Source of the DNA: an uncultured Acidobacteriota bacterium
GTDB lineage: Bacteria; Acidobacteriota; Thermoanaerobaculia; Multivoradales; UBA5704
Length of the DNA: 64,000 nt
Direction of reading: 5' to 3'
Assembly: GCA_963770895.1 (NCBI GenBank)
Contig: CAVYRF010000002.1
Location: 3,296,001-3,360,000, forward strand
The notes beneath the pieces are model-generated. The model was not told the origin of the DNA, made no database searches, and saw only the letters and a list, made by a program, of their open reading frames with translations. Made by a program: the position numbers and the translations under genes. Below, in pieces: positions 5,080-64,000 of the stretch. Position 1 is the stretch's first letter. Every line of letters begins with the position of its first letter.

Positions 5080-5180
5080 TGCGTATTCCGGCGAAAGTGG
5101 ACAGCCGTTCCGATCCAAAGTGGACAGCAATCGGAGCGAAGCGACGCTCAGGTGATCCTCAGTTGAAGGTGTCCACTTTG
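5080..5180. mobile_element. Isolated IS21-like terminal remnant
   Basis: Begins TGCGTATTCCGGCG with repeated AAAGTGGACAG boxes and an inverted TGTCCACTTT; resembles 29066. Confidence 0.55.
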
Positions 5181-5200
5181 AGGTCTCGAGATCTCCTCTC

Positions 5201-6655
5201 TTGTTTCTGACCCTGCACGGCACCACGGTCGCACGCCGTGCGCTCGACAGTGCGATCAACGGCCAGGTTCTCGACGTGTGCCAAAGGCCCGTGCCTGCCG
5301 CAAGTTTCCTCGCCTTTTTCGCCGATCGCAACCGAACTGCCGGCGAGTCCCCCGCCTCCGGAGATCTGCCCATGCCCGACATCGAGCCCGTCACCCCGGG
5401 CGCCCACGAGAAGCCGCGAGAAGTGTTCATCTCCTATGCCTGGGGAGACGAATCCCCGGAGGGGAAAGTTCGCGACGAGGCCGTCGAGCGGCTTCAGGCT
5501 GCGCTCACCGCGGATGGACTCCTCCCGGTCCGCGACCGCGATCAGCTGCACTCAGGCGCGCGAATCTCGTCCTTCATGCGCCGCCTCACCCAAGCCGATG
5601 TCGTGGTGACCATCATCAGCGACAAGTACCTGCACTCTCCGTACTGCATGTACGAGATCTACAGGCTCTGGCAGCGCAGCCAAGACGTCCCCGACGACTT
5701 GGCGCGGCATCTCGTTCCGGTCATCCTCCCCGAGGTGACGATCGGCAGCTTCGACGCTCGCGTGCCCTACCTGCAATTTTGGTCGGACCGCGCCGCCAAG
5801 CTCGAAGCGCTGATCCGCGATCCGAACCTCCAGCCCTCCCGCGAGTCTTGGGACGAGGTGCGCCTGGTGTGCGAGTTCGCGCACCACGTGGACAGCATCC
5901 TGGTCTTTCTCCAAGACATCCTCATGCCCCGCAACCTCGACGCTCATTTCGACAATGGGTTCAAGGCCGTGCGGGAAGCCTTGCACAGCCGCCTGAAAGC
6001 CCCGGAACTGGCAAACCATGCCACGGTCTTGCCCCCCGCAAGAGCGGACGCACCTATTCCCGACGTCGACGTCGAACCCCGCCTCCAGACAAAGCTACGC
6101 GTTCTGGTTCTCGCAGCCAACCAGGACTGGGGGGGCATCCAGCTCGATCTGGACGAAGAGATGAGGAGCTTGCAGGTCGAGCTGGGAAGCGTCAGATTCA
6201 GGGACCAAATCTCCCTCAAAGTCATCCACTCGGTGCGCCCGGACGACCTGCTACGGCATGTCCGATCGGAGAAGCCCCATATCGTCCATTTCAGTGGCCA
6301 CGCCTCCAAAACCGGCATTGCGCTTCGTGACGATCGAGGCGGAAGCATCGAGGTGACGGGGTCAGCGCTGCGGCGTTTCCTGAAAGATCGCGGGGTCCAG
6401 CTCTTGGTGCTCAATGCTTGCTACACCCAGGACCTTTGTACTGAAGCCTCCAAGGTGGTCGGAGCCGTTGTGGGAACGACCGAAGGCATCAGCGACGAGC
6501 AGGCACAGCGTTTTTCCACGGCTTTCTATCGCGCCATCGGCGACGGGCTCTCCGTTGGAGAAGCCTTTCGGGATGGCGGCGATGCCGTTGTGCTCCACGG
6601 TCTGCAAGACGCATTCTGGAGCGAGGGCAACCTGGACCAGATCCTGCTCCAGTAA
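5201..6655 (+). CDS. TIR domain + CHAT (caspase-like) protease protein, probably 5'-truncated (alternative ATG 5372)
   Basis: TIR: VFISYAW, SDKYLHSPYCMYE; CHAT: PHIVHFSGH and LLVLNACYT. Confidence 0.85.
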   Translation: MFLTLHGTTVARRALDSAINGQVLDVCQRPVPAASFLAFFADRNRTAGESPASGDLPMPDIEPVTPGAHEKPREVFISYAWGDESPEGKVRDEAVERLQAALTADGLLPVRDRDQLHSGARISSFMRRLTQADVVVTIISDKYLHSPYCMYEIYRLWQRSQDVPDDLARHLVPVILPEVTIGSFDARVPYLQFWSDRAAKLEALIRDPNLQPSRESWDEVRLVCEFAHHVDSILVFLQDILMPRNLDAHFDNGFKAVREALHSRLKAPELANHATVLPPARADAPIPDVDVEPRLQTKLRVLVLAANQDWGGIQLDLDEEMRSLQVELGSVRFRDQISLKVIHSVRPDDLLRHVRSEKPHIVHFSGHASKTGIALRDDRGGSIEVTGSALRRFLKDRGVQLLVLNACYTQDLCTEASKVVGAVVGTTEGISDEQAQRFSTAFYRAIGDGLSVGEAFRDGGDAVVLHGLQDAFWSEGNLDQILLQ

Positions 6656-30405: not shown

Positions 30406-31689
30406 TCACTCTCCAGCGGAGACCACGCCAGCCACTAGCTCGGGAGACGACGCTGCCTCTTCCGAGGAGATGCGTGTCAACTCTTCCGCCCAAGTGGCCA
30501 AGGCTTGCCTCTTCTCCTTGTCGAACCGATAGCGGTTATAGATGCTGGTCACGCCTCGAGGCTTGTGGTTCAAGATCTCAGGCACCAAGTCGCTGAAGCC
30601 GAGGCGCGCGATATGGGTGGCACAGGTCCGGCGCAGATCGTGGGGAGTAAAGTTAATGCCCGTAGCTTGCCGGACCTCTAGCAACGGCTTGCGGATCGAG
30701 GCGAGCGGCCGGCCAGGCGACCCGGAGAAGACGTAGGGCGAGCCATCTTTGCGCAGCCGCCGCTCGGCGATGACCGCTCTCGCAGGCTCCGAGAGATAGA
30801 CGCGCGACGCGACTCCGTTCTTCGAATGCGCAGCGCGCAGGTTGTACCACTCGTCGCCATCGAAGTCAGCCCAAGCCATGTGCATGGCCTCGCCCGGCCG
30901 CATGCCGGTCAACAGAATGAGCTTGGCAACCTGATAAGCGGCGTCGCCACCGTCGCCGTGGAGCTTCTGCAGGAGGGTCCGCAGCTCCCGCTCGTTCAGA
31001 TAGCGGTCCTTCGGCGTCTCCTTATTTTTCGAGATGCCCACGACGGGGTTGAAGCTCACTAGGTCCCGTTGCAGGCCGAAGTTGAACATCTTCGACAGCA
31101 GCGCCTGTAGGCGGTTCGCGGCAACCGGACCGGCGGTTACGCGGGCTTCATCGAGATAGGCGATGACCGTGCGGCGGTCAATCTCGGCAAGCGGCACGTC
31201 GCTCCATCGTGGCAGGAGCTTGTAGCGCATCGCCCGCTCGTCGGGCACAGGGTCCTTCTTCCGAATCCAGGCATGGTGCTGTAAGTACTCGGCGACGAGC
31301 TGGCCAAAGCTCGCCGGCAGGAAGCCGTCCGGCAGGAACGCCACGAGGCGACCCGCAACAGCGGTCCTGTCCGAGGCCTGGGGGCGCTCGGTCGCCGGCC
31401 CCGGGTCCACCCCCTTTGCCAGATCACCGAGAGCCGCTCGGGCTCGCTGGCGGGCCCTTGCAAGACTGATTGCCGGTGCTTCGAGCCCATAGTGACCGAG
31501 ATCCAGCCGCCGAACCTTCCGGTCCCTGGCCTTACCGGCGCTCGGTGTGCGGTACATCAGGAAGAAGCTCTTCTTGCCAGTCCGGCCCCAAACCCGAACC
31601 CCGAACCCCGCGATTCCGCCCTCGCCGTCAAAGACGTCCTCTCGCTCCTGCTGCGTCCTCAGTGCTCGCACCTGCTTATCGGTCAGCAT
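30406..31689 (-). CDS. int: Tyrosine integrase (P4-like, with arm-binding domain)
   Basis: GFGVRV arm-binding N-terminus, LTGMRPGE, SKNG, HDLRRT, LNH, IYNRY. Confidence 0.95.
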   Translation of the reverse strand: MLTDKQVRALRTQQEREDVFDGEGGIAGFGVRVWGRTGKKSFFLMYRTPSAGKARDRKVRRLDLGHYGLEAPAISLARARQRARAALGDLAKGVDPGPATERPQASDRTAVAGRLVAFLPDGFLPASFGQLVAEYLQHHAWIRKKDPVPDERAMRYKLLPRWSDVPLAEIDRRTVIAYLDEARVTAGPVAANRLQALLSKMFNFGLQRDLVSFNPVVGISKNKETPKDRYLNERELRTLLQKLHGDGGDAAYQVAKLILLTGMRPGEAMHMAWADFDGDEWYNLRAAHSKNGVASRVYLSEPARAVIAERRLRKDGSPYVFSGSPGRPLASIRKPLLEVRQATGINFTPHDLRRTCATHIARLGFSDLVPEILNHKPRGVTSIYNRYRFDKEKRQALATWAEELTRISSEEAASSPELVAGVVSAGE

Positions 31690-31727: not shown

Positions 31728-31758
31728 TGTGTTACCCGTATGCCTGGCGGGTAACACA
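31728..31758. repeat. Perfect 11-bp inverted repeat TGTGTTACCCG upstream of integrase 1 (arm site or operator)
   Basis: 31728-31738 and 31748-31758. Confidence 0.55.
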
Positions 31759-31884: not shown

Positions 31885-31900
31885 TGACTGAAAATCACGG
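31885..31900 (+). repeat. att core 1: 16-bp copy of tRNA-Phe 3064-3079
   Basis: TGACTGAAAATCACGG identical to the tRNA anticodon arm. Confidence 0.85.
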
Positions 31901-32707
31901 GTCGAGTGGCGCGGGGGAATTTCACCCCCGCGCTCTCACGGAACCGGACGTGAGGCTCTCGCCTCATCCGGCTCTTACGATCCAGCCTCCGGTTGCGCCC
32001 CGAGGGTCCACAGCACGAATAGCGTCGGGTTGCGCCGAGCGACGAGTCCCAGCCAATGCACTGAGGCCCGCTTTCGGCGTTGCAGCCGTTTGTACTTCCG
32101 TCGCGCCCAGGCCGCGAGGGCCTCGTTGAGGTGGCGAAGGACCTGGAGACACTTCGACCTGTAGAACCGGCCATAGTAGTTCATCCAGCCCCGTACCGAC
32201 GGATTGACGAGCCGAGCCAGATCCTCCAGGGTTTGATTGTTCCTGGCGGACGCCATCCGCCACTGCCGGATGGTGGCGCGGATCGCCTTGGCGGCGTTGG
32301 TGCTGATCGCCGGCAGGAAGCTGACGAAAAACTCTCCCTGGGGGTTCTTTGCGCGTCGAGGTTGGAAGGTGTAGCCCAGGAAGTCGAACGCTACGTGTTC
32401 GTGCTCCCCACGCCGATTGTCGTCCTTGCAGTAGACGATCCGGGTCTTCACCGGGTGAAGATCCAGACCGCACTGCTCGAACCGATCCCGGATGGCGTCC
32501 AACACTTCTTCGGCCTGCGACCTGCTCCGGCAATGGACGATCGCGTCGTCCGCATAACGTTCGAACTGGACGCTCCGGAAGTTCCCTTGCATCCAGTGCT
32601 CGGCGACAATTACTGCTGTGCAGTGGCGACAACTACACCTGTGCAATTTGAGCAGCGCGTGAAGTGGTTGGCGGTCTCGTACCCCCGGCGACCGGGGAGG
32701 AGGCTGT

Positions 32708-34183
32708 TTGGTCACGAGCGACGCACAGGTGAGACGACTCATGGAAGAGCTGGAGCGAGAAGGCAGGATCGGCAAAGCCGCCCTACGTGCGGGGATGCAC
32801 CGCAACACGGCGCGGCGGTACCGGAAGCTGGGAAAGTTGCCATCGGAGCTGAAGCAGCCGCGGACGTGGCGGACGCGGGAGGACCCGTTTGCCGCGGATT
32901 GGCCGGCTTTGGCGCAGCGTCTTTCGGAGGCGCCGGAGCTGGAAGCGAAGGTACTGTTCGAGGATTTGGTGGCGCGGCGTCCGGAGCGTTACGGGCCCGG
33001 GCAGATGCGGACGTTTCAGCGGCGGGTCAAGGTGTGGCGGGCGCAGCAAGGTCCCGCCAAGGAGGTGTTTTTCTCGCAGCAGCATCGGCCGGGTGAGGCG
33101 ATGCAGAGCGACTTCACCTGGGCCAAGGAGCTGGCGATCACGATCGGCGGCAAGCCGTTCAGCCACCTGCTGTGTCAGGCGGTGCTGCCGTACTCGAATT
33201 GGTCGTGGGTGACGGTGTGCTTTTCGGAATCGCTGTCGGCTCTGCGCCGCGGCGTACAGAGCGCGGTGTTCCGGTTGGGGCGGGTACCGCGGTTTCATCA
33301 GACGGATAACTCCACGGCGGCGACGCACGACCTGCGGACGGGCAAGCGCGGCTTCAACGCTGAGTATGAGGCGTTGATGCGTCACTTGGGGATGGAACCG
33401 CGGACCATCGAACCGGGCCAGAAGCATCAGAACGGTGACGTCGAGGCGCTCAACGGCGCGCTCAAGCGCCGGATCGAGCAGCATCTGTTGTTGCGTGGCA
33501 GCCGCGACTTTGCGAGCCAGGAGGCCTACGAATCGTGGCTTGTGGAGGTGATGGAGAAAGCCAACCGGCTGCGCCGCCGTCGGCTGGCTGAGGAGCTGGA
33601 GGCGATGCATGCGCTACGCGTGGATCGTCTGCCGGAGTACAGCGAGGTGGAGGTCCGGGTGAGCAGCTGGAGCACGATTCGCGTCAAGCACAACGCCTAC
33701 TCGGTGCCGTCACGCTTGACCGGCGAGCGGGTACGGGTGCGGCTGTTTGACGCCCGGTTGGAGGTCTTCTACGGCGGCAGTCATCAGCTGACGATCGATC
33801 GGCTGCGCGGCGAAGGGGGTCACCGCATCGACTACCGTCACATCATCTGGTCATTGGTGCGCAAGCCCGGCGCCTTCGCCCGCTACCGCTATCGCGAGGA
33901 GCTGTTTCCAACGCCGGCCTTTCGCCGCGCCTATGACCGACTGCACGCCGCACGGGCGACGCCGCGGGCCGATCTGGAGTACCTGCGGATTCTGCATTTG
34001 GCCGCCTCGACGATGGAGTCGGAGGTGGAGGTGGCGTTGGAGCTGTTGGGCAAGGAGTTGCCATTGTACGAGCGCGTCAAGGGCCTGGTGCAGCCTGCGC
34101 GATCGTTGGCGGCGCCGGCGGTTTCGGAGCCGGTGGTCGACTTGCGTGCTTACGATGCGTTGCTGGCACAGGTGGCGTCATGA
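32708..34183 (+). CDS. istA: IS21 transposase IstA
   Basis: RTREDPF, QSDFT, TDNS, NGDVE, YSVPSRL. Confidence 0.92.
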   Translation: MVTSDAQVRRLMEELEREGRIGKAALRAGMHRNTARRYRKLGKLPSELKQPRTWRTREDPFAADWPALAQRLSEAPELEAKVLFEDLVARRPERYGPGQMRTFQRRVKVWRAQQGPAKEVFFSQQHRPGEAMQSDFTWAKELAITIGGKPFSHLLCQAVLPYSNWSWVTVCFSESLSALRRGVQSAVFRLGRVPRFHQTDNSTAATHDLRTGKRGFNAEYEALMRHLGMEPRTIEPGQKHQNGDVEALNGALKRRIEQHLLLRGSRDFASQEAYESWLVEVMEKANRLRRRRLAEELEAMHALRVDRLPEYSEVEVRVSSWSTIRVKHNAYSVPSRLTGERVRVRLFDARLEVFYGGSHQLTIDRLRGEGGHRIDYRHIIWSLVRKPGAFARYRYREELFPTPAFRRAYDRLHAARATPRADLEYLRILHLAASTMESEVEVALELLGKELPLYERVKGLVQPARSLAAPAVSEPVVDLRAYDALLAQVAS

Positions 34184-34947
34184 GCGCGGCGGCGGCAAGT
34201 CTGTCGATCCAGCTGCGGGAGCTCAAGCTGCCGGCGTTCGTGGCCTACCACGCGGAGGTAGCGCAGCGGGCCGAGCAGGGCGGCTGGTCGTTTGAGGAGT
34301 ACCTGGTGCAGCTGACGCAGCTGGAGCTCGACGAGCGCCAACAGCGCAAGCTCGAACGCCTGCGCCGGGCCTCGCAGTTACCGGCGGAGAAGACGCTGGC
34401 GACGCTGGACCTATCGCGTCTTCCGGCCAAGGTCCGTCGCCTCCTGCCCAGCCTGTGCGAGGGCGGCTTCGTCGAGCGGGCGGAGAATCTGCTGGCGTTC
34501 GGCCTGCCCGGTCGGGGCAAGTCGCACACGTTGTGCGCGGTCGGTCACGCGCTGGTCGAGCGCGGCTACAAGGTGCTGTTCACGCCGGCGTACCGGCTGG
34601 TGCAGCGTCTGCTGGTGGCCAAGCGGAACCTCGCGTTGGAGGGCGAGCTGCGCCGTCTGGACGGCTTTGACGCCGTGCTGGTGGACGACATCGGCTACAT
34701 CCAGCAGGACCGCGAGGAGATGGAGGTACTGTTCACGTTTCTTGCCGAGCGCTACGAGCGCAAGAGCGTGCTGATCACCAGCAACCTGGTGTTTTCCCAG
34801 TGGGATCAGATCTTCAAGAACCCGATGACCACGGCCGCGGCGATCGACCGCCTGGTCCACCACGCGGTGATCCTGGAGATGACCGGTCCTAGCCTGCGCT
34901 CGGAAACCGCCGTATTGAAGAATCGCGCCGAGGCAGACAGTGCATAA
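34180..34947 (+). CDS. istB: IS21 helper ATPase IstB
   Basis: GLPGRGKSH, DDIGY, AAIDRLVHH. Confidence 0.95.
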   Translation: MSAAAASLSIQLRELKLPAFVAYHAEVAQRAEQGGWSFEEYLVQLTQLELDERQQRKLERLRRASQLPAEKTLATLDLSRLPAKVRRLLPSLCEGGFVERAENLLAFGLPGRGKSHTLCAVGHALVERGYKVLFTPAYRLVQRLLVAKRNLALEGELRRLDGFDAVLVDDIGYIQQDREEMEVLFTFLAERYERKSVLITSNLVFSQWDQIFKNPMTTAAAIDRLVHHAVILEMTGPSLRSETAVLKNRAEADSA

Positions 34948-35611
34948 GCAAACGCTGCCGGCCTGTGGAAGGTGCCGTCCTGTGGAAAACTGGAGCCGCC
35001 GCCCGCCCCACCTCCAGTTTCCCACAGGACTTGGACCACCCACTCGCGTTTCCCACACCTCCGCACAGGCCCGGCGGCGACTAGGCTCTATGCGCCTGAT
35101 TCCATTGAAGAAAGAAGCTACCCCGAAGGCCGGGCCTGCGGCCCGCCCTTCTCCCCCTACACAATGCACAAGTGTAATTGTCGTCGCTGCACAAGTGTAG
35201 TTGACGCCGGGCAATCCAGGTGTCGAACGCATAGTGCAGGAAGAGGTTGGCCAGCAGCGGACTGAGGACTCCGCCCTGCGGCGTGCCCCTCGTGCGCGGC
35301 TCCACGGTCCCGTCTGCCCGCTGCACGGGGGCGCGAAGCCACCGTGCAACGTACAGGCGGACCCATGGGATGTCGGTGTGGTGCGCCACGGCGCGCTCGA
35401 CGAGATCGTGATCCAGGCTGTCAAAGAACGCCTTGATGTCCAGATCGATGACCCAGTCGGCGGCCCAGCATCGCCTCCTGGCAGTCTCCACGGCGTCGAG
35501 CGCAGACCGGCCAGGTCGATAGGCGAACGAGTCGGGATGGAAGCTTGGCTCCACCAGCGGCTCGAGCACCATCTTCGTGACCGTCTGAGCAACGCGGTCG
35601 GCAACCGTGGG

Positions 35612-52991: not shown

Positions 52992-54191
52992 TCAGGACTT
53001 CTTGAAGGGGATCACCTCCGCGGCCGGCTGGCCGTTGAGATCGGCGGCGATCTGGTTGGAGATCCGCGCGGCGGCGGCGCGGCGCGGGTCGTCGTCCAAG
53101 TGCGCGTAACGTGCGGTGGTCGCCGGGTGGCGGTGGCCGAGGATGGCGCCCAGCACCGGCAGCCCGAGATTGGCGGCTACGCCCACGGAGGCAAATCCGT
53201 GGCGAAGGTCATGCAGCCGGACATCCCCCAGCCCGGCCCGCTCGCGGATGCGCGTCCAGGGGCGCTGTAGGCCCACGAAGCGCCCATTCGGCCGGCGGCC
53301 GGGGATGACATAGGGGCTGCCTTCCAAGCGCGGCGCAGCGGCCAGCAGCTCGGCGGGCGCCGGACCGAGCGGGATGGACTTCTTGCCGGTCTTGCTGTCG
53401 GGCAGGTTGAGGGTGCCGGTGGCGAGGTCCACGTCCTGCCAGCGCAGATTGAGGATCTCGTTGCGCCGAGCGCCGGTCAGCAGGAGCAGCCGGATCGCCA
53501 GGACCGCGGCCGGGTCCTCCGAGCCGTCCTGTTCGACCGCGGAGAGCGCTTCGCCGAGCCGGCGAAGCTCGGCACCGGACATAAACCGTTCGCGCTTGCT
53601 CTCGCGAAAGCGGGCGATCCTCGGGCAGGGGTTCGAATGGAGCGGCCGGAGTCCCCACGTCTCGGCCAGGTTGAGCATCTTGCTCACCAAGGCGAGGACG
53701 CGGTTGGCCTGTACCGGCTTCTCCCGCAGGCTGTGGTGCAGGTCGGAGACCTCCTTCAGTCCGACCGCGGCAACCTTCCGCCGCCGGAGCGCCGGCAGGA
53801 CGTAGAGCCGCAAGCTCCGCTCATCGGCTTCGATGCTGGCCGGCTTCTTCTTCGGGCCGGCATGCTCCTCCAGGTAGCGACGGGCGAGGTCGGCGAACGT
53901 CGGCGCGGTCTTCTCGTCGGCCCGCTCGGCCGCCGGGTCCTCGCCGCGCGCTACCCGGCCGAGGATCTCCCGCGCGCGGTCCCGGGCCTGGTCAACGGTG
54001 ACCGGGCCGAACTCGCCCAGCGTCAGCCGGCGGGTCCGGCGCTCCCGCATCCACTCGACGGCGAACCACTGGCGCCCACTGGCCCGCACCCGGACGACGA
54101 AGCCGCGCAGCTCCGTGTCCCACACCTTGACCTCGCCGGCTGCCGGCGGCGGCAGGGAGTCGAGAAGACGTTTGGTGATCTTGGCTCGCAT
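52992..54191 (-). CDS. int: Tyrosine integrase (with arm-binding domain)
   Basis: WDTELRGFVVRV, LTGARRNE, DSKTG, HDLRH, LGH...TTARYAH. Confidence 0.95.
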   Translation of the reverse strand: MRAKITKRLLDSLPPPAAGEVKVWDTELRGFVVRVRASGRQWFAVEWMRERRTRRLTLGEFGPVTVDQARDRAREILGRVARGEDPAAERADEKTAPTFADLARRYLEEHAGPKKKPASIEADERSLRLYVLPALRRRKVAAVGLKEVSDLHHSLREKPVQANRVLALVSKMLNLAETWGLRPLHSNPCPRIARFRESKRERFMSGAELRRLGEALSAVEQDGSEDPAAVLAIRLLLLTGARRNEILNLRWQDVDLATGTLNLPDSKTGKKSIPLGPAPAELLAAAPRLEGSPYVIPGRRPNGRFVGLQRPWTRIRERAGLGDVRLHDLRHGFASVGVAANLGLPVLGAILGHRHPATTARYAHLDDDPRRAAAARISNQIAADLNGQPAAEVIPFKKS

Positions 54192-54207
54192 GGGTCGGGT
54201 CTTTGGC

Positions 54208-54250
54208 TGGGCTGTCGCTGGGATATCCTGGGCTGTCGCTGGGCTGTCGT
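54208..54250 (+). repeat. Three TGGGCTGTCGY repeats, putative arm-type sites (right end)
   Basis: Copies at 54208-54218, 54229-54239 and 54240-54250 match 3180-3201. Confidence 0.75.
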
Positions 54251-54354: not shown

Positions 54355-54369
54355 GACTGAAAATCACGG
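54355..54369 (+). repeat. att core 2: 15-bp copy of tRNA-Phe 3065-3079
   Basis: GACTGAAAATCACGG. Confidence 0.85.
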
Positions 54370-56050
54370 GTCGAGTGGCGCGGGGGAATTTCACCCCCGC
54401 GCTCTCACGGAACCGGACGTGAGGCTCTCGCCTCATCCGGCTCTTACGATCCAGCCTCCGGTTGCGCCCCGAGGGTCCACAGCACGAATAGCGTCGGGTC
54501 GCGCCGAGCGACGAGTCCCAGCCAATGCACCGAGGCCCGTTTTCGGCGTTGCAGCCGTTTGTACTTCCGTCGCGCCCAGGTCGCCAGGGCCTCGTTGAGA
54601 TGGCGAAGGACTTGGAGACACTTCGACCGGTAGAACCGGCCGTAGTAGTTCATCCAGCCCCGCACCGATGGATTGACGAGCCGAGCCAAATCCTCCAGGG
54701 TCTGATTGTTCCTGGTGGACGCCATCCGCCACTGCCGGATGGTGGCGCGGATCGCCGTGGCGGCCTTGGTGCTGATCGCCGGCAGGAAGCTGACGAAAAA
54801 CTCTCCCTGGCGGTTCTTTGCTCGTCGAGGTTGGAAGGTGTAGCCCAGGAAGTCGAACGCTACGTGTTCGTGCTCCCCACGCCGATTGTCGTCTTTGCAG
54901 TAGACGATCCGGGTCTTCACCGGGTGAAGCTCCAGACCGCACCGTTCGAACCGACCCCGGATGGCGTCCAGCACTTCTTCGGCCTGCGACCTGCTCCGGC
55001 AATGGACGATCGCGTCGTCCGCATAGCGTTCGAACTGGACGCTCCGGAAGTTCCATTGCATCCAGGTGTCGAACGCGTAGTGCAGGAAGAGGTTGGCCAG
55101 CAGCGGACTGAGGACTCCGCCCTGCGGCGTGCCCTTCGTGCGCGGCTCCACGGTCCCGTCTCCCCTCTGCACGGAGGCACGAAGCCACCGTGCAACGTAC
55201 AGGCGGACCCATGGGATGTCGGTGTGGTGCGCCACGGCGCGCTCGACGAGATCGTGATCCAGGCTGTCAAAGAACGCCTTGATGTCCAGATCGATAACCC
55301 AGTCGGCGGCCCAGCATCGCCTCCTGGCAGTCTCCACGGCGTCGAGCGCAGACCGACCAGGCCGATAGGCGAACGAGTCGGGATGGAAGCTTGGCTCCAC
55401 CAGCGGCTCGAGCACCATCTTGGTGACCGTCTGAGCAACGCGGTCGGCAACCGTGGGTATGCCGAGGGGGCGCGTGCCCCCGTCTGCCTTCGGAATCTCA
55501 ACGAGCCGCACCGCTGGCGGGAAGTACGACCCCGACGACATTCGATTCCAGATCTTGTACAGGTTGCCCTTCAGATCCTTCTCGAACGCCGTCAACGTCT
55601 CGCCATCGATGCCAGCCGCACCGCGGTTCGCCTTCACCCGCTGGTACGCTTCCCAAACGAGTCGCTTCGGAATCTGGTAAGGCTTTGCCTCAGGCACAGG
55701 CTCCTCCCATTGCTGGTTGACCTAAACCGTTGGCCCGATCGTCGGGCTCCTTCGCTCCACCCGCATTACCAGGCTTCGCCGCTACTACGAGCCCGTCCGC
55801 CCCTTCGCCCCGCATCGGTACTCGACTCCTCGTGGGTCCACCACTTGGAGGTCTCCCTTAGCATCGAGGCGAGAGGTTCCCACGTTCCGCACAAGAGCCT
55901 GCACTGGGCTCACGCCGTCTCCATGCCGGTCGCCGCTCGGGCCGTCGGCAGGCACCCCCCGAGCTTCATCCCGGGCCGCCAACAGGAGCCCGGTTTCGGC
56001 GACATCCCTGAACTTTCGACACCTCGTCAACGGTTCACTCGCGTTCGTCG
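54370..56050 (-). mobile_element. Group II intron copy 2 (class D/IIB), lacking the 5' part of domain I
   Basis: Domains V and VI identical to copy 1; RmInt1-like domain I motifs extend up to GACGAACGCGAGTGAACC; no GUGYG start seen. Confidence 0.9.
54444..55697 (-). CDS. ltrA: Group II intron reverse transcriptase/maturase, no endonuclease domain
   Basis: VKANRGAAGIDG, GIPTVADR, GTPQGG, RYADD, FLGY, RGWMNYYG; 417 aa. Confidence 0.97.
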   Translation of the reverse strand: MPEAKPYQIPKRLVWEAYQRVKANRGAAGIDGETLTAFEKDLKGNLYKIWNRMSSGSYFPPAVRLVEIPKADGGTRPLGIPTVADRVAQTVTKMVLEPLVEPSFHPDSFAYRPGRSALDAVETARRRCWAADWVIDLDIKAFFDSLDHDLVERAVAHHTDIPWVRLYVARWLRASVQRGDGTVEPRTKGTPQGGVLSPLLANLFLHYAFDTWMQWNFRSVQFERYADDAIVHCRSRSQAEEVLDAIRGRFERCGLELHPVKTRIVYCKDDNRRGEHEHVAFDFLGYTFQPRRAKNRQGEFFVSFLPAISTKAATAIRATIRQWRMASTRNNQTLEDLARLVNPSVRGWMNYYGRFYRSKCLQVLRHLNEALATWARRKYKRLQRRKRASVHWLGLVARRDPTLFVLWTLGAQPEAGS

Positions 56051-56217
56051 AGCAGAGCGAGCAGCTCCACCCTGTGGTCGCGAAGCGTCTGCGCGATGTC
56101 GGGCGTCATGCTGGCGCGCGGCCCCCTAACGCGCAGGCTGTCGCCGTCCACCGCGATGGAGAGCCCCATCCGCGCCAACGTCGCGAGCAGCTCGGCCGCG
56201 CTCACGTGATCGTCCAT
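56035..56217 (-). CDS. TubC N-terminal docking-domain-like small protein, abutting the truncated intron
   Basis: LL..L...G..I.VDGDSLRVRGP...T......LR.HR.ELLALL. Confidence 0.6.
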   Translation of the reverse strand: MDDHVSAAELLATLARMGLSIAVDGDSLRVRGPRASMTPDIAQTLRDHRVELLALLDERE

Positions 56218-56615
56218 TCCCCGGTGTCGGCCTCTGCCTCTGTCCCAGCAGTCTCGGTTCGGGCCAGCAGCGCTGCTGGCGCTCCCGTGTCACCCGACAG
56301 CTCGCTCGGTTCCATTGCGTGGTCCGTCTCGGGCCCCTCCCCTCCGGGAGGAACGGGCGAAGGCGTGCGCGAAGTCCTGCCGGACGTAGCCCTTGGCCGT
56401 CCTGGCTCCGTCGCGGAGCGACCTCGACCGTATGCCAAACCAGGCGGCATCCCGCGTGTGGCCGCCAGGCGGCTGACGGCAGCGCGGAGCGTTTCAGCTA
56501 CCGCCGCGCACGATACTCTCAGAGACGAAAAAAACTGGCGGAGGCGGGTGGGCTGGTCGGCCCGCTGGCCAATTCTGCCTCGGGGGGGCACCCCGAGAGC
56601 GACAAGGAGCCACCG

Positions 56616-56795
56616 ATGAGAAAGGCCAACAGGAAGCTTCCGGTCTGCCGTGAGACCCTCCACGCCCTGACCCTCAGCGCGGCGCCCCTGCGGGATGCGG
56701 TTGGCGGCTACCCGACGCAGTCCACGGTGCCAGGCTGCAGCGCCAACTGCACAAAGGTGCTCGCCTGCTCGATCAGGATCAACTGCACCCAGTAA
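56616..56795 (+). CDS. Orphan lanthipeptide-type precursor
   Basis: Leader MRKANRKLPVCRETLHAL...AVGG resembles 27047-27265; core has 4 Cys and several Ser/Thr; AAGGAG RBS. Confidence 0.75.
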   Translation: MRKANRKLPVCRETLHALTLSAAPLRDAVGGYPTQSTVPGCSANCTKVLACSIRINCTQ

Positions 56796-56974
56796 AGCGC
56801 CCTCACGCATCGCTCCGAGGCGGCGGCGACGGGCGACATCGACCACGGTCTCGCCCTCGCGCCGCGATCGTTTCGCCGGTGGGCCGCCGATCACGCCACC
56901 GCGCTTATGGAAGGTCCAACCGCATCGAGTTGACCCTTGCCGCGGTCAGGCACCGGACCATCTTCGCCGAGGGA

Positions 56975-57215
56975 GGCCGAAGTCGCCGTGGGTGACGAAC
57001 TCGACGATTTTGGTGCGCAGGATCGCGTCGGGGTCGATGAGGCGCGTCAGGGAGCCGTCGAGGAAGCTCTGGCGCAAGCTGGTGAGCCGCCAAGCGCCGG
57101 TCTCTTTGAGGGTCGGTGGCCAGTTGCGGTCGAGGTAGCCGGCTCCGATAGATTCGTTGAGGAGGGCGCTGGATTTGAGGGTGCTGAGGACTCTTCCGCA
57201 GAGGGTCTCTCCGCG
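56975..57215 (-). pseudogene. Internal fragment resembling the DUF499 ATPase C-terminal region
   Basis: Manual translation GETLCGRVLSTLKSSALLNESIGAGYLDRNWPPTLKETGAW..TSLRQSFLDGSLTRLIDPD; family recalled from memory. Confidence 0.5.
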
Positions 57216-58047
57216 GCGTGGCTACGCCGCCCGATCGATCTGCACGCGGTGCAAGCGGGCGACTGTCCAGCGTCACGCACTACATCGTGGCGCTCCGGGA
57301 CGGTGGCGACTGGTCGCTCGACAACGGCCAGGGCGTCAGCGCCGGTTGGCCCAACGAGCTGGGGGCGGAGGAGCGCGCCAGAAGGATGGGGGGGTTGCTA
57401 TCACCGCCAAGCACCACAGAGAGCTCGATGAGCGTTTAATTGTCCGGGCACTACGCAATCAACGCCCGATCGACAAAATTGCGAATGCGACTCGAACGCA
57501 CCACACACCCGGGAAAATCAAGCGAAGGATACGAAATCACAGATCACGGCGTTCTGCCGATTCCTCCACACCGCCGGCGCCGCCGGCCGTACCTGCGGCT
57601 CCAATCCCGTCGTCGTCTTTCGCAGTGTGGCGGTCCGGCCAATCGCTGGGGTAGCCTGCTGCGTCTACGCCAGCGCCGTCATGAGCGGCCTGCGTCCCTT
57701 CCCCTCGTCGAGCCCGGCGTGGTGCGGCTCGGCGTCATCCCGATGGACTTCTACAATCGCTACGATCCCTTCCTGCGTGTGCTGCTTGCCGCCAACCCGC
57801 TGCACTCCGGCGACGACGATGCGGCAAGACCCGCCAAGCCGGCAGCACGGCCGGCCACCCCGCCGCCGGCCCGGCCGCGGTAGGCCGGCGGCGGCCGGAC
57901 GGACGCTGTGTGGCATGGCGCCTCGCTGCCGGCGCCCCCGCATCGGCCCCCTCGGATCGGACGCTCGCTCCCTGCCCACCGAGGGCCGCAGCGGCGGGCG
58001 TGCCGAGTCGCAGCACGCCTGCAGCCGGCCTTCGGGGCACGGACCTC

Positions 58048-59133
58048 CTACGGGCAGGGCAGCGCCGCCGTGTCGGCCACGGTCACCGTGGTGGTGCCGT
58101 TGTTGTTGAGGTACCCCTTGTGGTGGCCGGTCTGGGTATCGACCACCTCGACGCCCCAGCCCTGGTTGGTGAGGCCGCCGATGAAGACCCAGAAGCTGTT
58201 GTTGATCGCGCAGGCATCCAGCACCTTGACGCCCATCTCGAAGTTGCTCGAATCGGTGAAGTAGAAGAATACCGACTCGTCGCTCTCTGCGCGCGTACCG
58301 TTGAAGCTCAGCACACTGGCAGAACCGCTGCCGGTGGTCGTGTTGTCGTAGGCCGCGCTCACCTGGAACCGCGAGCTGAGCAGACAACCGCTGCTCGAGG
58401 TCGGCGAGCACGAGGTGGCCACGGAGCAGGTCGAGCCCGAAGGCTCGTCGAGCGGGAATTCCACGAACCCGTTGCTCTCCGGCGCCGAGGCCGTGCCGCC
58501 TCTGGTGAAGGTGCGGATGTCCGCCAGGTGGGTGCCCGAGATCAGGACGATCGACAGGTAGTAGCAGCCGGGGGTATTGGGCGGTGCGTAGGCGATCTCG
58601 CCGGTGTCCACGCTGCCGGTGTCCGTGCCGCCCGTGAGCACTGCGTCGAGGTCGGCCAGCGCCAGCTGGTAGTAGGTGAAGGTGCCGCTGGTGAGGGCAG
58701 GCACCACGGCGGTGGCCCACAGGGCGATCTTGAGGTCGCCGGTGGTGCCGCCCGCGTTGGTGTCGATGATGTCCGATACCTTGACCTCCGCCTGACCATT
58801 TCCCCAGGTGGCACCGATGGCATCGACCAGGTAGAGGCCGGACGCGGCGTCCTTCGGCTGCAGCGAGGTCGAGAGCACCTGGCCCGCGCCGTCGTTCCGC
58901 GCCGCCCGCGCATGCACGGGACCGATCGACACGTATGAGCGCACCGCCGGCAGGGCGCTTGCGGGCGTCGCCGCGCCGCCCCCGGCCTGGCCGAGGTCGG
59001 CGAAGACGACGGCCTCCGGCGGTGGCGCGGCAAAGGCCGCGGTGGCCAGCAGGCCGGCGGCAGTAATGGTGGCGAGCGCCAGCGAACGCGTCCGGCGACG
59101 ATCGATTCTCTGCGACTGCATGGAGTTCGACAT
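58048..59133 (-). CDS. Secreted protein with a conserved C-terminal domain shared with 61441-63327
   Basis: Signal peptide; CL..SRFQV, FFYF...NFEMGVKVLDAC..N..FWVF. Confidence 0.8.
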   Translation of the reverse strand: MSNSMQSQRIDRRRTRSLALATITAAGLLATAAFAAPPPEAVVFADLGQAGGGAATPASALPAVRSYVSIGPVHARAARNDGAGQVLSTSLQPKDAASGLYLVDAIGATWGNGQAEVKVSDIIDTNAGGTTGDLKIALWATAVVPALTSGTFTYYQLALADLDAVLTGGTDTGSVDTGEIAYAPPNTPGCYYLSIVLISGTHLADIRTFTRGGTASAPESNGFVEFPLDEPSGSTCSVATSCSPTSSSGCLLSSRFQVSAAYDNTTTGSGSASVLSFNGTRAESDESVFFYFTDSSNFEMGVKVLDACAINNSFWVFIGGLTNQGWGVEVVDTQTGHHKGYLNNNGTTTVTVADTAALPCP

Positions 59134-59497
59134 ACGCGGTCTCTCCTTTCCGGCCCGGTCGGCATCCAGCCTCCGGGAGGCTGTACCGGATGGCCTGGCC
59201 GACAGATCTCGGCGAAAACTGTGAGAAGGGTGATGCTTAGAGATTGTACCAGAGCTCGACCCCGCGTACAGTCCGGCTGCGGAGCGCCGGTCCCCGGCCG
59301 CCCCGAGCGCTGATCAGCTGCCGGTTCCGTCTCTGTCGGATGAGCCGTACTCGGAAAGGAGGCACCCCTACCCAAGCAACCGCTCAATCCGATGATCTTT
59401 CTACCCGGCTTCTACGGCTCGCAGCTCAACCTGGAGCGACCAAGGATCAGGAACGCGAGCTTGGCCGGCGCGCTCGCATCTTGATCAAGGAGCTGTG

Positions 59498-59800
59498 ATG
59501 AACAAGAAGCATTTCGGCGAGATGCTGGGTTCGCTCGATGAGGCCGTCGAGATCGCCCGCGGAAGCGGACGCCCGGCAGGGCCTACACTCTGAGCAAGCC
59601 GGATGCGCGCGCGATCCGCCGGTCGCTTGGCCTGACGCAGGTGGAGTTTGCCGCGCTCCTCAACATTCCGGTGACCACCATTCAGGGGTATGAGCAGGGG
59701 CGGCGCGCACCCGATGCGCCAGCCCGCACTCTGCTGCGCGTCGCTCTGGCAGCGCCAGAGCTCCTGCGGAGCATCCACGCTGAAAGGAAGGTCGCGAGAG
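59498..59800 (+). pseudogene. HigA-like XRE antitoxin, frameshifted, preceded by a probable toxin C-terminal remnant
   Basis: MNKKHFGEMLGSLDEAVEIARG, then IRRSLGLTQVEFA...YEQGRRAP in another frame; TGATG coupling. Confidence 0.7.
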
Positions 59801-60106
59801 CGGCTGGCTCGCCGGGGCAGCCACGCGGCAAGGCCGAGCCGGCCGGCGCTCAACGCCCAGGCCCTGATCTCCCTGGCGGCCGGGGTGCACAACCGGGCAT
59901 CGGTTGCGCGCCCCCCTATAGCAGATGGCATGCGGTTGGCCGCGGCGCGCAGCGGTTCGTCGGCGCAGAAATGCGTGCTCAGGCGCCGTATCGGCCTCGA
60001 AATCGGGCGCCCACCTGGCCAGGCTGTCGGTGATGGTGGCGATGAGGACGAGCAGAGCTGCGCGCTGGAAGTCTCCGTGCGGGCGGCCAGGTCTGGTGCT
60101 CGCGCC

Positions 60107-60700
60107 TCATGGCACCCGCAGCTCGAAGCCGAGCCAGGCGTCCAGGAAGCGGAGGTCGCCGGCCCCGGTACCGTTCACTGCGTGAGCGGTGACCCCGGTC
60201 TCGAGCGCGGCGCGAGCGGTCACCGGCACCTCGAGGCCCACCCCGGCCTGGTAGCCCCCATGGGTGCTGCCGAGGGCACGGTACAGTCCCACCCCGGCGC
60301 TGGCGAAGGGGCGCCACAGACCGCTCCCGCCGAGGACCTTGACCGCCAGGGCGGCGTCGGTGACCCCCAGGTTGCCGGGCGGGGCCGCCGGCGTTGGGGC
60401 GAAGGCGTGGTAGCCGAGCTCCACTCCAGCCCGGAAGTGCTGGGTGAACGGCCACTCGAGGTCGACTCGGGATTCGAAGCCGGGGGAGTAGGCGTCATGC
60501 ATCTTGGCGACCGGATAGTCGCCGCCCACCGACACCCCCAGAAGGAGCGCATGGGGCGAGCCGAACGCGCCCGCCGCTCCCGAACCGCCAGCGCCGCCCA
60601 CGGCGCCAGAGCCGCCCGCGACCGCGCCGTCGGGGGCGCGGCGGATGCCGGCCAGTTGATAGAAGACGGTCGAAACCACCGGCCCCACGACGTAGGCGTG
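60107..60700 (-). pseudogene. Outer-membrane beta-barrel C-terminal fragment
   Basis: Amphipathic strands RPFASAGVGLY, YQAGVGLEV, LGFELRVP; no credible N-terminus. Confidence 0.55.
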
Positions 60701-61440
60701 CTGGTGGGGATCGTAGTGCTTCGCGTGCGGGTCAACGACTCGCGCGATGAGGTAGACGGTCGTCGAGGGGAACAGATCGCGCTGGGTTCCAGCGCAGATC
60801 GGGCCTTCCTTGTCCGGGCTCTGCAGCGAGTCCCGCCCTGTCGTCGATCGGCCGGCAGTGGGGATGCCCTGACTGCAATCGACGACCCCGGGCTCCCCGA
60901 GGCGATGCCTGACCTCGACATGCGGCGGCTGTGAAAGCGGCGCCACCGCGCAGCGCCTGCCGTCGCGCAGCTCGCCTGGCTCGCATTTGCCGACCAGCCA
61001 GGGGCGGATCGAATCGCCGGTGCGCGTCTTCGGCTCTGGGACCCGCTGGCCCGCAAGGCCCACAGGGACCGCAAGGCGTCTCTGCGCCGGCTGGCGTGCG
61101 AGTGTTCACGGCTTCCCAATGCAGCAGCGCCTGCACGCTTGTCGTCCCCGCCGGAGTCGGCCAGGTGATAGTCGAGGCCTGGGGAGCCGGTGGTGGAGGT
61201 GGTGGCGCCATCACCCCGCCGGTCGATGTAGCCACGGTCATGGTCCTCCCGTCCGTTGCGGCCTGCAGGGCGGTCGCCGTCGCGTTTCTCGGTCTCGCTG
61301 TCGTCGTCGCCGCGACGACCTATGCGGCAAGCCCACTATCCGAGCTCCATGATCTCGGCGTGACGCCGGGCAGGCGGGTTAATTCTCCCAGATGCCCAAT
61401 GGTATCTGGACAGGTGCATTGGTCTACCCCAGCTTGCTTT

Positions 61441-63327
61441 CTATGGACAAGTTAGCGCGGCCGTGTCCTGGACGGGCGGCGCGGCCGTGCCTTCGGGATT
61501 TGTGTAGATCTTCTGGTGCCTGGTCTGGCCGTCGATGACCGTAACGGTGAAGCCGACGTTGGTGTCCGCAGCGTAGAAGATCCAGTACCGCTTGTTGACG
61601 GCGCAACCATCGATCACCTTGATCAGCATCTCTGGGTTGTCGGCGCTGAAGAACCAGAACAGCCCGCCCTGTTCGATCCCGAGGGTTTGCAGGGATATGG
61701 CGTTGCCCTTGCCGGCGTTGCCGCTGCCCGCGTTGTAGCTGACGGTCACCTGGAAGCGGCTGTCGATGCAGAGCGTCTTGGGGCCGGGGGTGCAATCGGC
61801 AGCGGCTTCCGGCGATGCGGCGATCGCGCTTCCGGGTGCTGACGCGATGGCGCTGGGGAATGACCAGGTGGCGTCATGCAGGGGCGAAGGCGCAAGGGCG
61901 CCGGCCGGAGGGGCGAGGTCCGCTGCGTCAGGGTCCGGTGGCGCCGGCGCGGTGGATGGGCCGTCGCCATTGATGCAGGCGAACGCCGAGGTGTCCTGGA
62001 TCGGCGGCGCGGCTCTGCCGTCAGAGTTGGTATAGGCCTTGGCCCGCCCGGTGCTGGTGTCCCTGACGGTGATCGTGAAGCCGACGTTGGTGCCGGCGGC
62101 GGAAAAGACCCAGAACTGCTGGTTGACCCCGCAGCCGTCCACTACCTTGACCAGCATCTCCGGGTTGTTGGCGGCGAAGAACCAGAAGAGGCCGCCTTGC
62201 GTGACGCCGAGGCTGCTGAGCTGGACGGCGGTGCCGTAGCCGGAGCTGCCTCCTCCCTCGGCGGTGTGGTAGGCGGTCTTGACCTGCCAGCGCCGGTCGC
62301 CTGGCTGGTCGTCGAGGCACAGGCTGCCGCCGCCGGGCGAGCAGGGCGGCGCGGCACGGCCGATCTTTCCGGCAAGGCCCTCGCTGAACCACATGTTGCC
62401 ATCCGGCCCGCCGGTGATCGCCTGCGGATAGGCGCCCGCGGTCGGAATCTGCACCTCGGTCACCGCCCCGGCGGTGGTGATCCAGCCGATGGCGTTGGCG
62501 TTCTCGTTTTCGACGAACCAGAGGTTGCCGTCGGGTCCCGTGGCGATCTGATAGGCGGGGTTGGTGGTCGGGAACTTGGTGATATCGCCGGCGGCGGTCA
62601 TGCGCCCGATCTGGTTGGTGAACTCCATGGTGAACCATAGGTTGCCGTCCGGCCCGGAGGCGATGCCGATCGGGCTCGGTGGGCATGGGAACTCCGTCAA
62701 CGCGCCGCCGGGAGTGATGCGGCCGATCTTGGCGGCGAAGCCCTCCGTAAACCAGAGATTGCCGTCGGGTCCGGTGGTGATGTCGGTCGGCGCCGAGCCG
62801 GCGTACGGCAGCGGCAGCTCGGTGATCGCGCCTGCGGTCGTGATGCGCCCGATCTTGCCGCTGTTGTACTCGGTGAACCAGAGGTTTCCGTCGGGGCCGG
62901 GCGTGATTCCGGCCGGGTCCGCCAGCGCGGTAGGCAACGGGAACTCGGTGATCACACCTGCCGGCGTGATGCGCGCGATCTTGTTGCCCAACGGCTCGGT
63001 GAACCAGACGTTGCCGTCGGGGCCCGGGGCGATCCCCGCGGGATTCTCGACGTAGAAGACGTTGGCGGCGACCGGGAATTCTCCGAGCACGACGCCGGAT
63101 GGGGACATCTTGCCGATCTTGCTCGCCCGTATCTCGATGAACCAAAGGTTGCCGTCGGGCCCGGTGGTGATGCTCGCCGGATCCGAGTTCGCGGCCGGCA
63201 GCGGGAACTCGGTGATCGGGATGGTGGCGGCCGAGACGGCTGCCACCCCTGCGGACAGCACGGTACAGAGCGCAATCGCCGCAGGTCTGGCGAGGCGCGA
63301 GCAGTTCGACACGATCGAGCGGGCCAT
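61441..63327 (-). CDS. Secreted Vgb-like beta-propeller protein with two C-terminal repeat domains
   Basis: Signal peptide; seven GPDGN(L/V/M)WF repeats; two GGLFWFF..NPEML.KV.DGC.VN domains. Confidence 0.88.
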   Translation of the reverse strand: MARSIVSNCSRLARPAAIALCTVLSAGVAAVSAATIPITEFPLPAANSDPASITTGPDGNLWFIEIRASKIGKMSPSGVVLGEFPVAANVFYVENPAGIAPGPDGNVWFTEPLGNKIARITPAGVITEFPLPTALADPAGITPGPDGNLWFTEYNSGKIGRITTAGAITELPLPYAGSAPTDITTGPDGNLWFTEGFAAKIGRITPGGALTEFPCPPSPIGIASGPDGNLWFTMEFTNQIGRMTAAGDITKFPTTNPAYQIATGPDGNLWFVENENANAIGWITTAGAVTEVQIPTAGAYPQAITGGPDGNMWFSEGLAGKIGRAAPPCSPGGGSLCLDDQPGDRRWQVKTAYHTAEGGGSSGYGTAVQLSSLGVTQGGLFWFFAANNPEMLVKVVDGCGVNQQFWVFSAAGTNVGFTITVRDTSTGRAKAYTNSDGRAAPPIQDTSAFACINGDGPSTAPAPPDPDAADLAPPAGALAPSPLHDATWSFPSAIASAPGSAIAASPEAAADCTPGPKTLCIDSRFQVTVSYNAGSGNAGKGNAISLQTLGIEQGGLFWFFSADNPEMLIKVIDGCAVNKRYWIFYAADTNVGFTVTVIDGQTRHQKIYTNPEGTAAPPVQDTAALTCP

Positions 63328-63465
63328 GGGAGAGCCTCCTGACGAGATAGATCGGGTGCGGCGCTGCCGCGCAGAACGCAGTGTAATCAAAGATGCTAGC
63401 AGGGCGACTATCGAGCGAGCAAGGCGACTCCGGCCCGGCAGTGACAGCGGAGTAGGATTATCGCC

Positions 63466-64000
63466 ATGGGGAAGGTCGCCTTGGGGGTGGCCGTCGCGGC
63501 GGCGCTGGTCGCGGCGGCAGTGCCGGTGCTCTGCGCCCAGCCTCTGCCTGCGGCGATTGCTCAGCTCGACCACACGGTGTGGACGGTCCGCGACGGCGCT
63601 CCCGTGGGAGTCAACGCGCTCGCGCAGTCCGCCGACGGTGTGCTGTGGATCGGCACCACCACGGGCCTCTACCAGTTCGACGGCGTGGAGTTCGCGCCGT
63701 ACGAGCCAGGCGCGGGGCAAGCGCTGCTCTCGCTGTCGGTGTCGACGCTGCTGGCGCTGCCGGACGGCGGGCTCTGGGTCGGCTACCACTGGGGCGGCGT
63801 CAGCTCGCTCGTCAGGGGACGGCTCACCAGTTGGCTGCCGGGGGACGCGCTGCCCAGCGGCACGGTGACCGGGCTCGCTCGCGACAGCAGTGGGGAGATC
63901 TGGGCGTCGACAACGACCGGTCTTGCGCGGTTCCGCGGCGGGCTCTGGAACCGTCTCGGTGCCGAGAGCGGCTACCCGGGTGGCATGACCTCCGACCTCG
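63466..64000 (+). CDS. Two-component regulator propeller-domain sensor kinase, N-terminus only (runs off window)
   Basis: Manual translation: signal peptide, HTVWTVRDGAP, ALAQSADGVLWIGT.TGLYQFDG. Confidence 0.8.
   Translation, partial: MGKVALGVAVAAALVAAAVPVLCAQPLPAAIAQLDHTVWTVRDGAPVGVNALAQSADGVLWIGTTTGLYQFDGVEFAPYEPGAGQALLSLSVSTLLALPDGGLWVGYHWGGVSSLVRGRLTSWLPGDALPSGTVTGLARDSSGEIWASTTTGLARFRGGLWNRLGAESGYPGGMTSDL

Follow-up and report, generated by a model that had tools for sequence, protein, structure and literature searches.

Probable retargeting of an RmInt1-like group II intron clade to the antisense strand of partial tRNA copies

Bacterial group II introns are described in a review as entering defined homing sites, terminator motifs or integron attC sites (PMC4424553). 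RmInt1, RmInt2 and Sr.md.I1, which the introns reported here resemble most, are about 1.88 kb long and encode an intron-encoded protein (IEP) of about 417–419 residues that lacks a DNA-binding or endonuclease domain and carries the class D C-terminal motif LX3AX3PXLF[V/A]HW; they read their target through the exon-binding sites EBS1 and EBS2 over positions -1 to -14, with a linker of 1–2 nt, and their homes, insertion sequence (IS) elements, are usually redundant mobile DNA and not host genes (PMC4615759, PMC1802570). Class C attC introns use the recombination site of an integrase-driven element as a landing pad and recognise a stem-loop with short pairing (PMC4424553). TeI4h of Thermosynechococcus elongatus has its homing site inside the sequence of tRNA-Ile(CAU); the host gene is complete and essential, the intron is sense-oriented, and it has to splice (PMC2882425). 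Introns that home into other group II introns, giving twintrons, are on record from T. elongatus and Methanosarcina acetivorans (PMC2882425, PMC4424553). The present study concerns two truncated group II introns in a stretch of 64,000 nucleotides (the window; G000:C2:3296001-3360000) from the genome of an uncultured Acidobacteriota bacterium (G000; 8.16 Mb, 70.7% G+C, three contigs). It is very likely that they are dead copies from a clade of class D type introns that re-aimed its guide sequences at antisense tRNA 3' halves.

Both introns lie on the minus strand and, as a preliminary description of this DNA had stated, end at the same base before a tRNA-Phe core: copies 1 and 2 end in ...CCACTCGAC immediately before CCGTGATTTTCAGTC, at 31900 and 54369, respectively (in a longer reading, ...CCACUCGAC followed by CCGUGAUUUUCAGUC). 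Group II domains V-VI abut the two junctions (31901-31976 and 54370-54445; 57.7 bits each, positions 1-77 of 77 in Rfam model RF00029). Copy 2 (54370-56049) corresponds to intron positions 201-1881 of 1881, full-length relatives measuring 1878-1881 nt, and holds an open frame on the minus strand (54444-55697) for a reverse transcriptase (RT)-maturase of 417 residues with a YADD motif; the initial 200 nt, with the GUGCG 5' end, are missing, as is the 5' exon. Copy 1 consists of a 3' part (31901-32596, 96% identical to copy 2), which carries domains V-VI and the C-terminal part of the RT/maturase gene, and a middle part inside the RT gene (35214 to about 35611), where homology stops near intron position 790; the first 40% of the intron is missing, along with the 5' exon. 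Between the two parts lies an IS21-family element on the plus strand (32597-35213; IstA at 32708-34183 and IstB at 34180-34947; Pfam rve/Mu-transpos_C_2 and IstB_IS21), with TG...CA ends and a 6-bp duplication, ATCCAG, at 32591-32596 and 35214-35219. A third copy, at C2:5269098, is 132 nt long (from intron position ~1750), has the same junction and adjoins an integrase 98% identical to the second integrase of the window (see below). No full-length copy was found in the G000 assembly, and the remaining tRNA sequence, expected as the 5' exon, has no second occurrence in the window at up to three mismatches. Two scraps of the intron lie elsewhere in the genome: a 33-nt 3' end followed by cggtgatcctcaggc (L006, C2:3438826-3438857), perhaps a decayed older site, and a 122-nt internal piece (L005, C1:2076522-2076643).

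The left and right surroundings of copy 2 bear on how it was shortened. The last codons and stop of a small open reading frame (ORF) with a TubC_N-type docking domain (56041-56220, minus strand; Pfam, 3.1e-9) lie inside the intron remnant, and the boundary 56049/56050 is therefore a secondary deletion or fusion. Among sequencing runs, which were examined as contigs only, contigs from three other runs extend into the absent 5' part of the intron at exactly 56049. The G000 copies have thus all been shortened secondarily. A contig of a related organism in run X5 has the flank and core of copy 2 and then TGTCGGCGGTTCAAT, the remainder of the tRNA, in an intron-free, empty site. One contig of an RNA library crosses an intron/core junction in a different context, but this does not establish transcription. 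Five same-genus genomes were searched for synteny with the right flank (56050-64000), and only scattered paralogous pieces were obtained.

The IEP of copy 2 (P0001) contains RVT_1 (68-288) and GIIM (315-389) and nothing beyond, a DNA-binding or endonuclease domain being absent. Its C-terminus, LGLVARRDPTLFVLW, matches all fixed positions of the class D motif except for L at H; that of a full-length relative, L008, reads LGRIARRNPTLFVLW. The protein is 52.7% identical to the 419-residue IEP of an 1884-nt intron on a Sinorhizobium meliloti plasmid, which we take to be RmInt1 from its size and host, the record giving no name. Rfam model RF01999 matches the S. meliloti intron and the relatives L007 and L008; the D1-D4 region of this model and the 5' end are present in L007 and L008 and absent from the window copies. 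With the 5' parts taken from relatives, the ribozyme comprises a GUGYG end, a domain I-IV core and domains V-VI. In the IEP tree described below, the S. meliloti IEP, as the one presumed class D reference and with no references of other classes, lies on a long branch among these sequences. The intron thus fits an RmInt1-like, class D type, as had been proposed from the sequence. It differs from the RmInt1 type in the L for H of the window motif, in the truncated and immobile state of the window copies, in its orientation to replication (see below) and in its target, which is not an IS element but antisense tRNA-derived attachment (att) copies or, in the wider lineage, YADD codons. Membership of the class C attC type was considered and ruled out by clear pairing of EBS2 with its intron-binding site (IBS2), by an EBS1-IBS1 pairing of 7-9 bp and by the RmInt1-like closest relative on record: whereas class C introns recognise a stem-loop, the window-type intron reads a defined site by EBS2-IBS2 and a long EBS1-IBS1. 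The recombinase systems also differ, being tRNA-targeting island integrases here and integron integrases for the class C attC introns.

The sole tRNA found in the window by ARAGORN and Rfam is an intact tRNA-Phe(GAA) gene at 3036-3111 on the plus strand (Rfam tRNA, 73 bits), the single tRNA-Phe among the 69 tRNAs that ARAGORN finds genome-wide. The 15-mer GACTGAAAATCACGG, which is its anticodon arm plus one base, occurs on the same strand at 3065, 31886 and 54355 (3 matches against 0.08 expected; none of 100 shuffles reached 3). The minus strands of the two outer occurrences, att core copy 1 (31886-31900, plus strand; identical to tRNA-Phe 3065-3079) and att core copy 2 (54355-54369, plus strand), form the 3' exons of intron copies 1 and 2. 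The intact gene holds the identical intron target over at least -32 to +15 and is intron-free; the insertion point would fall between 3079 and 3080. Next to each core lies a minus-strand gene for a P4-type tyrosine integrase whose start codon is about 200 bp to the left of the core: integrase 1 (427 residues, 30406-31689; Pfam Phage_integrase, Arm-DNA-bind_3 and Phage_int_M) and integrase 2 (399 residues, 52992-54191; assigned by Pfam, with an arm-binding domain), 31.7% identical by blastp. The partial tRNA repeats thus start from the anticodon arm, as expected of island att sites, with the complete gene at the other end and, in G000, an arm-binding tyrosine integrase beside the repeat; the intron trims the window repeats to 15-16 nt. 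Across the greater part of 4-56 kb the G+C content is 59-70%, a single bin reaching 72%, compared with 70.7% genome-wide. Taken together, the repeats, the integrases and the G+C profile are consistent with two tandem islands downstream of tRNA-Phe.

Candidate arm-type integrase sites on the plus strand comprise two copies of CTGGGCTGYCG just downstream of tRNA-Phe (3179-3200) and three of CTGGGCTGTCG in the interval from integrase 2 to core copy 2 (54207-54249); the motif occurs 10 times in the window against 2.7 expected, with clusters at these two places. The neighbourhood of integrase 1 has no CTGGGCTGTCG cluster and has its own inverted repeat, at 31728-31758, instead. The motif of the integrase 2 type adjoins the real tRNA although an integrase of type 1 closes the first island, and its presence by tRNA-Phe and integrase 2 only means that the two islands are not a simple tandem pair. 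Unoccupied full tRNA-Phe 3' halves occur in G000 at C2:5219987 and C2:5254124, and homologues of integrase 2 lie beside the cores at C2:5254124 and C2:5269083. These belong to a second tRNA-Phe att array (C2:5219987-5269229) with two intact 3' halves, one 132-nt intron stub and integrases 80% and 98% identical to integrase 2. The array is 1.9 Mb from the tRNA-Phe gene and its left end has no complete tRNA, which suggests a rearrangement or secondary integration sites.

The reading of the target by the intron was resolved by covariation. Fifty of 80 IEP-related loci were kept (GTGYG near the 5' end, both ends on the contig, 1700-2100 nt), 30 being dropped for absent ends or unclear boundaries; with L007, L008, L009 and L116 added and two duplicates removed, the set contained 52 distinct introns. 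Mutual information (n = 52) showed that exon positions -2 to -6 covary with intron positions 267-271 (96-100% paired) and exon -10 to -12 with intron 238-240 (90-96% paired), so that EBS1-IBS1 and EBS2-IBS2 fall within -14 to -1, as in class D targets. Intron positions 257-279 form a hairpin, also predicted by RNAalifold, with compensatory stem changes of G-C to A-U and G-C to C-G. In copy 2 this hairpin is found at 55971-55993 on the minus strand (CCGGGC-UCCUGUUGGCG-GCCCGG). The preliminary description had proposed it as EBS1 from its position, where RmInt1 has EBS1, and from the loop sequence UGUUGGCG (55984-55977), and the covariation bears this out: EBS1 is UGUUGGCGG at 55984-55976 and pairs at nine of nine positions, with the single G-U wobble that had been predicted, with CCGCCGACA, the antisense of tRNA-Phe 3080-3088 in the variable loop and T-arm. 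EBS2, UUCAG at 56012-56008 (minus strand), pairs with the antisense T-loop sequence UUGAA (exon -10 to -14), and the suggestion that EBS2 would pair with the upstream antisense T-arm is thereby borne out as well.

The exons lost from the window copies are retained in relatives. The same-genus genome G003 carries L008, a full-length intron with an intact IEP, and L116, an ORF-less deletion derivative, both of which start with GUGCG. Their 5' exons are tggtgcccaggggcggaattgaaccgtcgacc and ...ccgtcggcc, respectively, and the 3' exon of both is ccgtgattttcagtc. Joined together, the exons of L008 match the antisense strand of the G003 tRNA-Phe exactly, starting in the anticodon loop and running to CCA. 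In addition to L008 and L116, the metagenome loci L132/L137 and L134 described below rebuild antisense tRNA-Phe, in line with the 5' exon that had been deduced from the intact tRNA. The tRNA likeness at the L008 and L116 sites ends in the anticodon stem, with no complete tRNA by ARAGORN, and none of the eight occupied loci checked holds a complete tRNA. tRNA-Thr is also a target, in addition to the proposed tRNA-Phe: the 5' exon of L009 (genome G005) is the antisense 3' half of tRNA-Thr(CGU), and the 3' exons in G004 and G001 are antisense tRNA-Thr anticodon arms. L009 and its own Thr exon form 12 of 12 pairs, and for each intron its own exon type gives the best or equal-best pairing.

In a pattern scan of 92 genomes of the family, the intron/tRNA-Phe junction was found in five of the ten genomes of the genus; outside the genus, a single doubtful match came from one genus, and nine further genera had none. 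Several matches with two mismatches, located in the intron part (G034, G005:C547 and G002:C46), were left out of this count, as they may simply be copies resembling the tRNA. Within the genus, partial tRNA-Phe 3' halves abound, with about eight unoccupied and two occupied in G003 and two unoccupied and three occupied in G000. A partial tRNA-Phe on G002:C112, 1.6 kb from an intron fragment, was considered as the fragment's 5' exon and rejected as a separate unoccupied copy. As for tRNA-Thr(CGU), G000 itself has two partial 3'-half copies (C1:1428684-1439262 and C2:2957890), both intron-free, one of them 10.5 kb downstream of the gene beside an integrase 35% identical to integrase 2; these are vacant targets for the Thr-homing branch.

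Soil metagenomes were searched with a pattern that spans the EBS2 region, includes UUCAG and contains no exon bases, which found 13 loci. The 5' junction can be seen in 11 of them, and every one of these is located in an antisense tRNA 3' half, seven Phe-like and four Thr-like; the Thr exon is the antisense of the 3' half of the G000 tRNA-Thr(CGU). The 3' junction is visible in five loci; L132, L137 and L134 have a Phe core (L132 and L137 look like one element) and L127 has a tRNA-Thr(UGU)-like core. The same signature had no match in 400 other genomes sampled across the phylum, of which only two were of the same family, or in viral contigs. The fifth of these loci, L130 (intron 800-2677), combines an antisense tRNA-Thr 5' exon with a 3' exon of the YADD type (tcgtggtcctgtg...), and apparently arose by recombination between a tRNA-inserted and an RT-inserted copy. 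At several occupied Phe cores outside G000 (L132, L134, L137, L012 and L122), a neighbouring ORF stops at a TGA within the Phe core (gacTGAaaa), and thus a gene that reads into the att core is closed by anticodon-arm sequence; in L132 and L134 this ORF encodes a methyltransferase.

These sites bear on whether the intron entered tRNA copies repeatedly. It is quite unlikely that a single insertion was later spread by duplication or site-specific recombination of blocks of integrase, core and intron. Such spreading would agree with the 98%-identical integrase and similar arm region shared by copy 2 and the copy at C2:5269098, and with the core remaining intact after insertion, so that integrases could presumably recombine at an occupied core. 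As to INDEPENDENCE of the copies, however, copies 1 and 2 have no similarity in their flanks right past the 15-16-nt core and their integrases are only 31.7% identical, against 96-97% identity of the introns, and the two are therefore separate events; many unrelated neighbours at the same junction in other genomes and metagenomes likewise argue against spread from one insertion. The earlier argument that the copies do not stem from one duplication accordingly holds for copy 1 versus copy 2, to which clear independence is limited; copies 2 and 3 may be one unit.

The tRNA-homing introns belong to a wider lineage with a different home. Forty of the 52 introns lie inside a Y/F-A-D/G-D codon run, typically ...CGCTACGCCGACGACT|TCGTGAT.... 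At the five such loci tested, every 5' exon encodes RVT_1 1-155, ending at YADD, and at four of them the group II maturase domain (GIIM) is encoded by the 3' exon; the YADD-homers therefore enter the RT active-site codons of other group II introns, forming twintrons. They share homing into other group II introns with the twintrons of T. elongatus and M. acetivorans; the inner introns of T. elongatus enter between the first two ATGs of the ORF, whereas the lineage here enters YADD-coding DNA (PMC2882425, PMC4424553). This YADD-homing lineage (L036-L115, e.g. L041 at 4444-6329, L043 and L067) occurs in many phyla with an IEP identity of 55-82%. In a tree of IEPs with 53 rows, omitting three rows with broken ORFs as well as L009 and L116, the five tRNA-homers (the window copy, L008, L127, L132 and L134) form one clade with support of 100/99 nested among YADD-homers, the Thr-targeted L127 lying inside it. 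Hence the view that the lineage targets tRNA att sites applies to one derived clade, while the wider lineage homes into YADD codons, and the tree supports the tRNA-homers as a derived retargeting from YADD-homing ancestors. In L106 and L078, intron copies follow one another head to tail, the 3' end of one copy serving as the 5' exon of the next (...gactcacc|GTGCGCCA); such tandem insertion has been reported for RmInt2 in a homing assay (PMC4615759).

The likeness of the two kinds of site raises the question of adaptation. The YADD site CCGACGACT|TCGTGAT and the antisense tRNA-Phe CCGCCGACA|CCGTGAT agree at 13 of the 16 positions that span the junction; YADD sites are also occupied by the close relatives L007, from a neighbouring genus, and L010, from the genus itself; and L095, a YADD-homer, lies in a non-RT gene of similar sequence (YAGD after a His-rich run), presumably HIT-like. 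All three observations would suit accidental ectopic insertions, in which an ordinary YADD-homer entered antisense tRNA-Phe as a chance look-alike with no adaptation. We nevertheless consider this very unlikely. The YADD-homers carry the guides GCGUAG (EBS2) and AGUCGUUGG (EBS1), whereas the tRNA-homers carry GUUCAG and tRNA-matching EBS1 loops, and the change in EBS2 and that in EBS1 both restore pairing with the tRNA. The pairing of the tRNA-homers reaches 11-12 of 12 with their own exons and about 8 of 12 with YADD exons. Moreover, they constitute one clade and recur in five same-genus genomes and in all 11 metagenome loci.

Retargeting to tRNA copies would proceed as follows. The clade's ancestors would have homed into YADD codons in the RT genes of other group II introns. 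With altered guides, EBS2 (UUCAG) would pair with the antisense T-loop and EBS1 with the antisense T-stem and variable loop, and the intron would enter between the variable loop and the anticodon stem, so that the antisense anticodon arm becomes its 3' exon. The insertion point and the strand are constant, and the target is defined by the EBS1 and EBS2 pairing. Because of its antisense orientation, the intron is unspliceable from a tRNA transcript; unlike TeI4h, the present clade is antisense and is seen in partial tRNA copies only. An insertion into the sole tRNA-Phe gene would presumably be lethal and so never observed, and the survivors would sit in redundant partial tRNA copies, the att sites left at the ends of tyrosine-integrase islands. 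The proposal that only redundant copies are occupied agrees with the sites found, every tRNA-like target being partial and the real tRNA at 3036 intron-free. In G000, at least two separate insertions occurred, copy 1 and copy 2/3, each copy afterwards losing its 5' part and 5' exon by deletion and copy 1 also being struck by the IS21 element. As the assembly holds no full-length copy, the intron family looks extinct in this genome.

It is hardly credible that the intron is a passenger in the attP region of the islands, carried along instead of choosing its site, for although all three G000 copies stand at an integrase-arm-core junction, an intron in the tRNA-restoring attP half would be expected to break the sole tRNA-Phe on integration, the examined G003 and metagenome sites have no adjoining integrase, and the EBS-IBS covariation indicates that the intron reads the site.

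Retargeting to antisense tRNA 3' halves remains our preferred explanation, and several points weigh against it. None of the three G000 copies retains its 5' exon, which is deduced from relatives and unoccupied sites. EBS3, which in class D introns pairs with exon position +1, was not located, exon positions +1 to +4 having given no convincing covarying column by mutual information. L008 and L116 pair at 11 of 12 positions, with one A-C mismatch in the middle of EBS1-IBS1. Copies 2 and 3, with their 98%-identical integrase flank, may be one duplicated block. The metagenome set was selected by the EBS2 signature, and hence is not a blind sample of the clade. By GC skew, the origin lies near C2:1.95 Mb and the plus strand of the window is the leading strand, and the sense strand of the intron is on the leading-strand template; the endonuclease-free retrohoming of class D introns favours the lagging-strand template, and RmInt1 also uses the orientation found here, less often (PMC1802570). 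Adjacency to tyrosine integrases was seen in G000 but not at the examined sites in G003 and the metagenomes. A scan of the core-side ORFs by L008, L116, L132 and L134 gave no integrases but a PIN-domain protein, an M28 peptidase, an amino-acid permease-aminotransferase fusion and methyltransferases. The window integrases, compared by tblastn with 20 flanking loci, had no homologue, only a 22-residue scrap in L132, and no integrase was found by Pfam in ten flank ORFs of those loci, distant or farther-off recombinases lying outside the scope. Outside G000, it is thus solely the partial state of the tRNA copy that suggests an att site.

Beyond the islands, an ORF at 61441-63999 on the minus strand (852 residues, open at the window end) contains diverged repeats about 117-138 nt apart and possibly encodes a repeat-rich protein.

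No report of homing into tRNA-derived att sites, and no paper naming a YADD-codon homing site, was found in the full-text literature searched, with subscription papers, supplements and the intron database outside that scope. The clade would represent ordinary base-pair homing in which the home is the antisense strand of tRNA-derived attachment-site copies. The target would have changed stepwise, from YADD codons through a look-alike sequence and matched changes in EBS1 and EBS2 to tRNA-Phe and then tRNA-Thr.

A further, more tentative possibility, which we regard as doubtful though worth stating, is that the clade persists only on att copies supplied by islands and that an intron in the distal att site, or the deletion that comes after it, in turn fixes those islands. 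If true, the same target would be present in the essential tRNA gene, where insertion is lethal, and in spare att copies that serve as decoys. Excision would then be fatal, since the only tRNA-Phe gene would receive a damaged 3' half; in the window, neither of the islands between 3112 and 54354 would be able to leave, and the intron would be an island-stabilising lesion. The observations thus raise the idea that insertion or decay of an intron at the outer att site makes island excision lethal. With the guide sequences and natural targets now defined, two kinds of mobile DNA would be linked in this family, the islands creating the safe landing sites of the intron.

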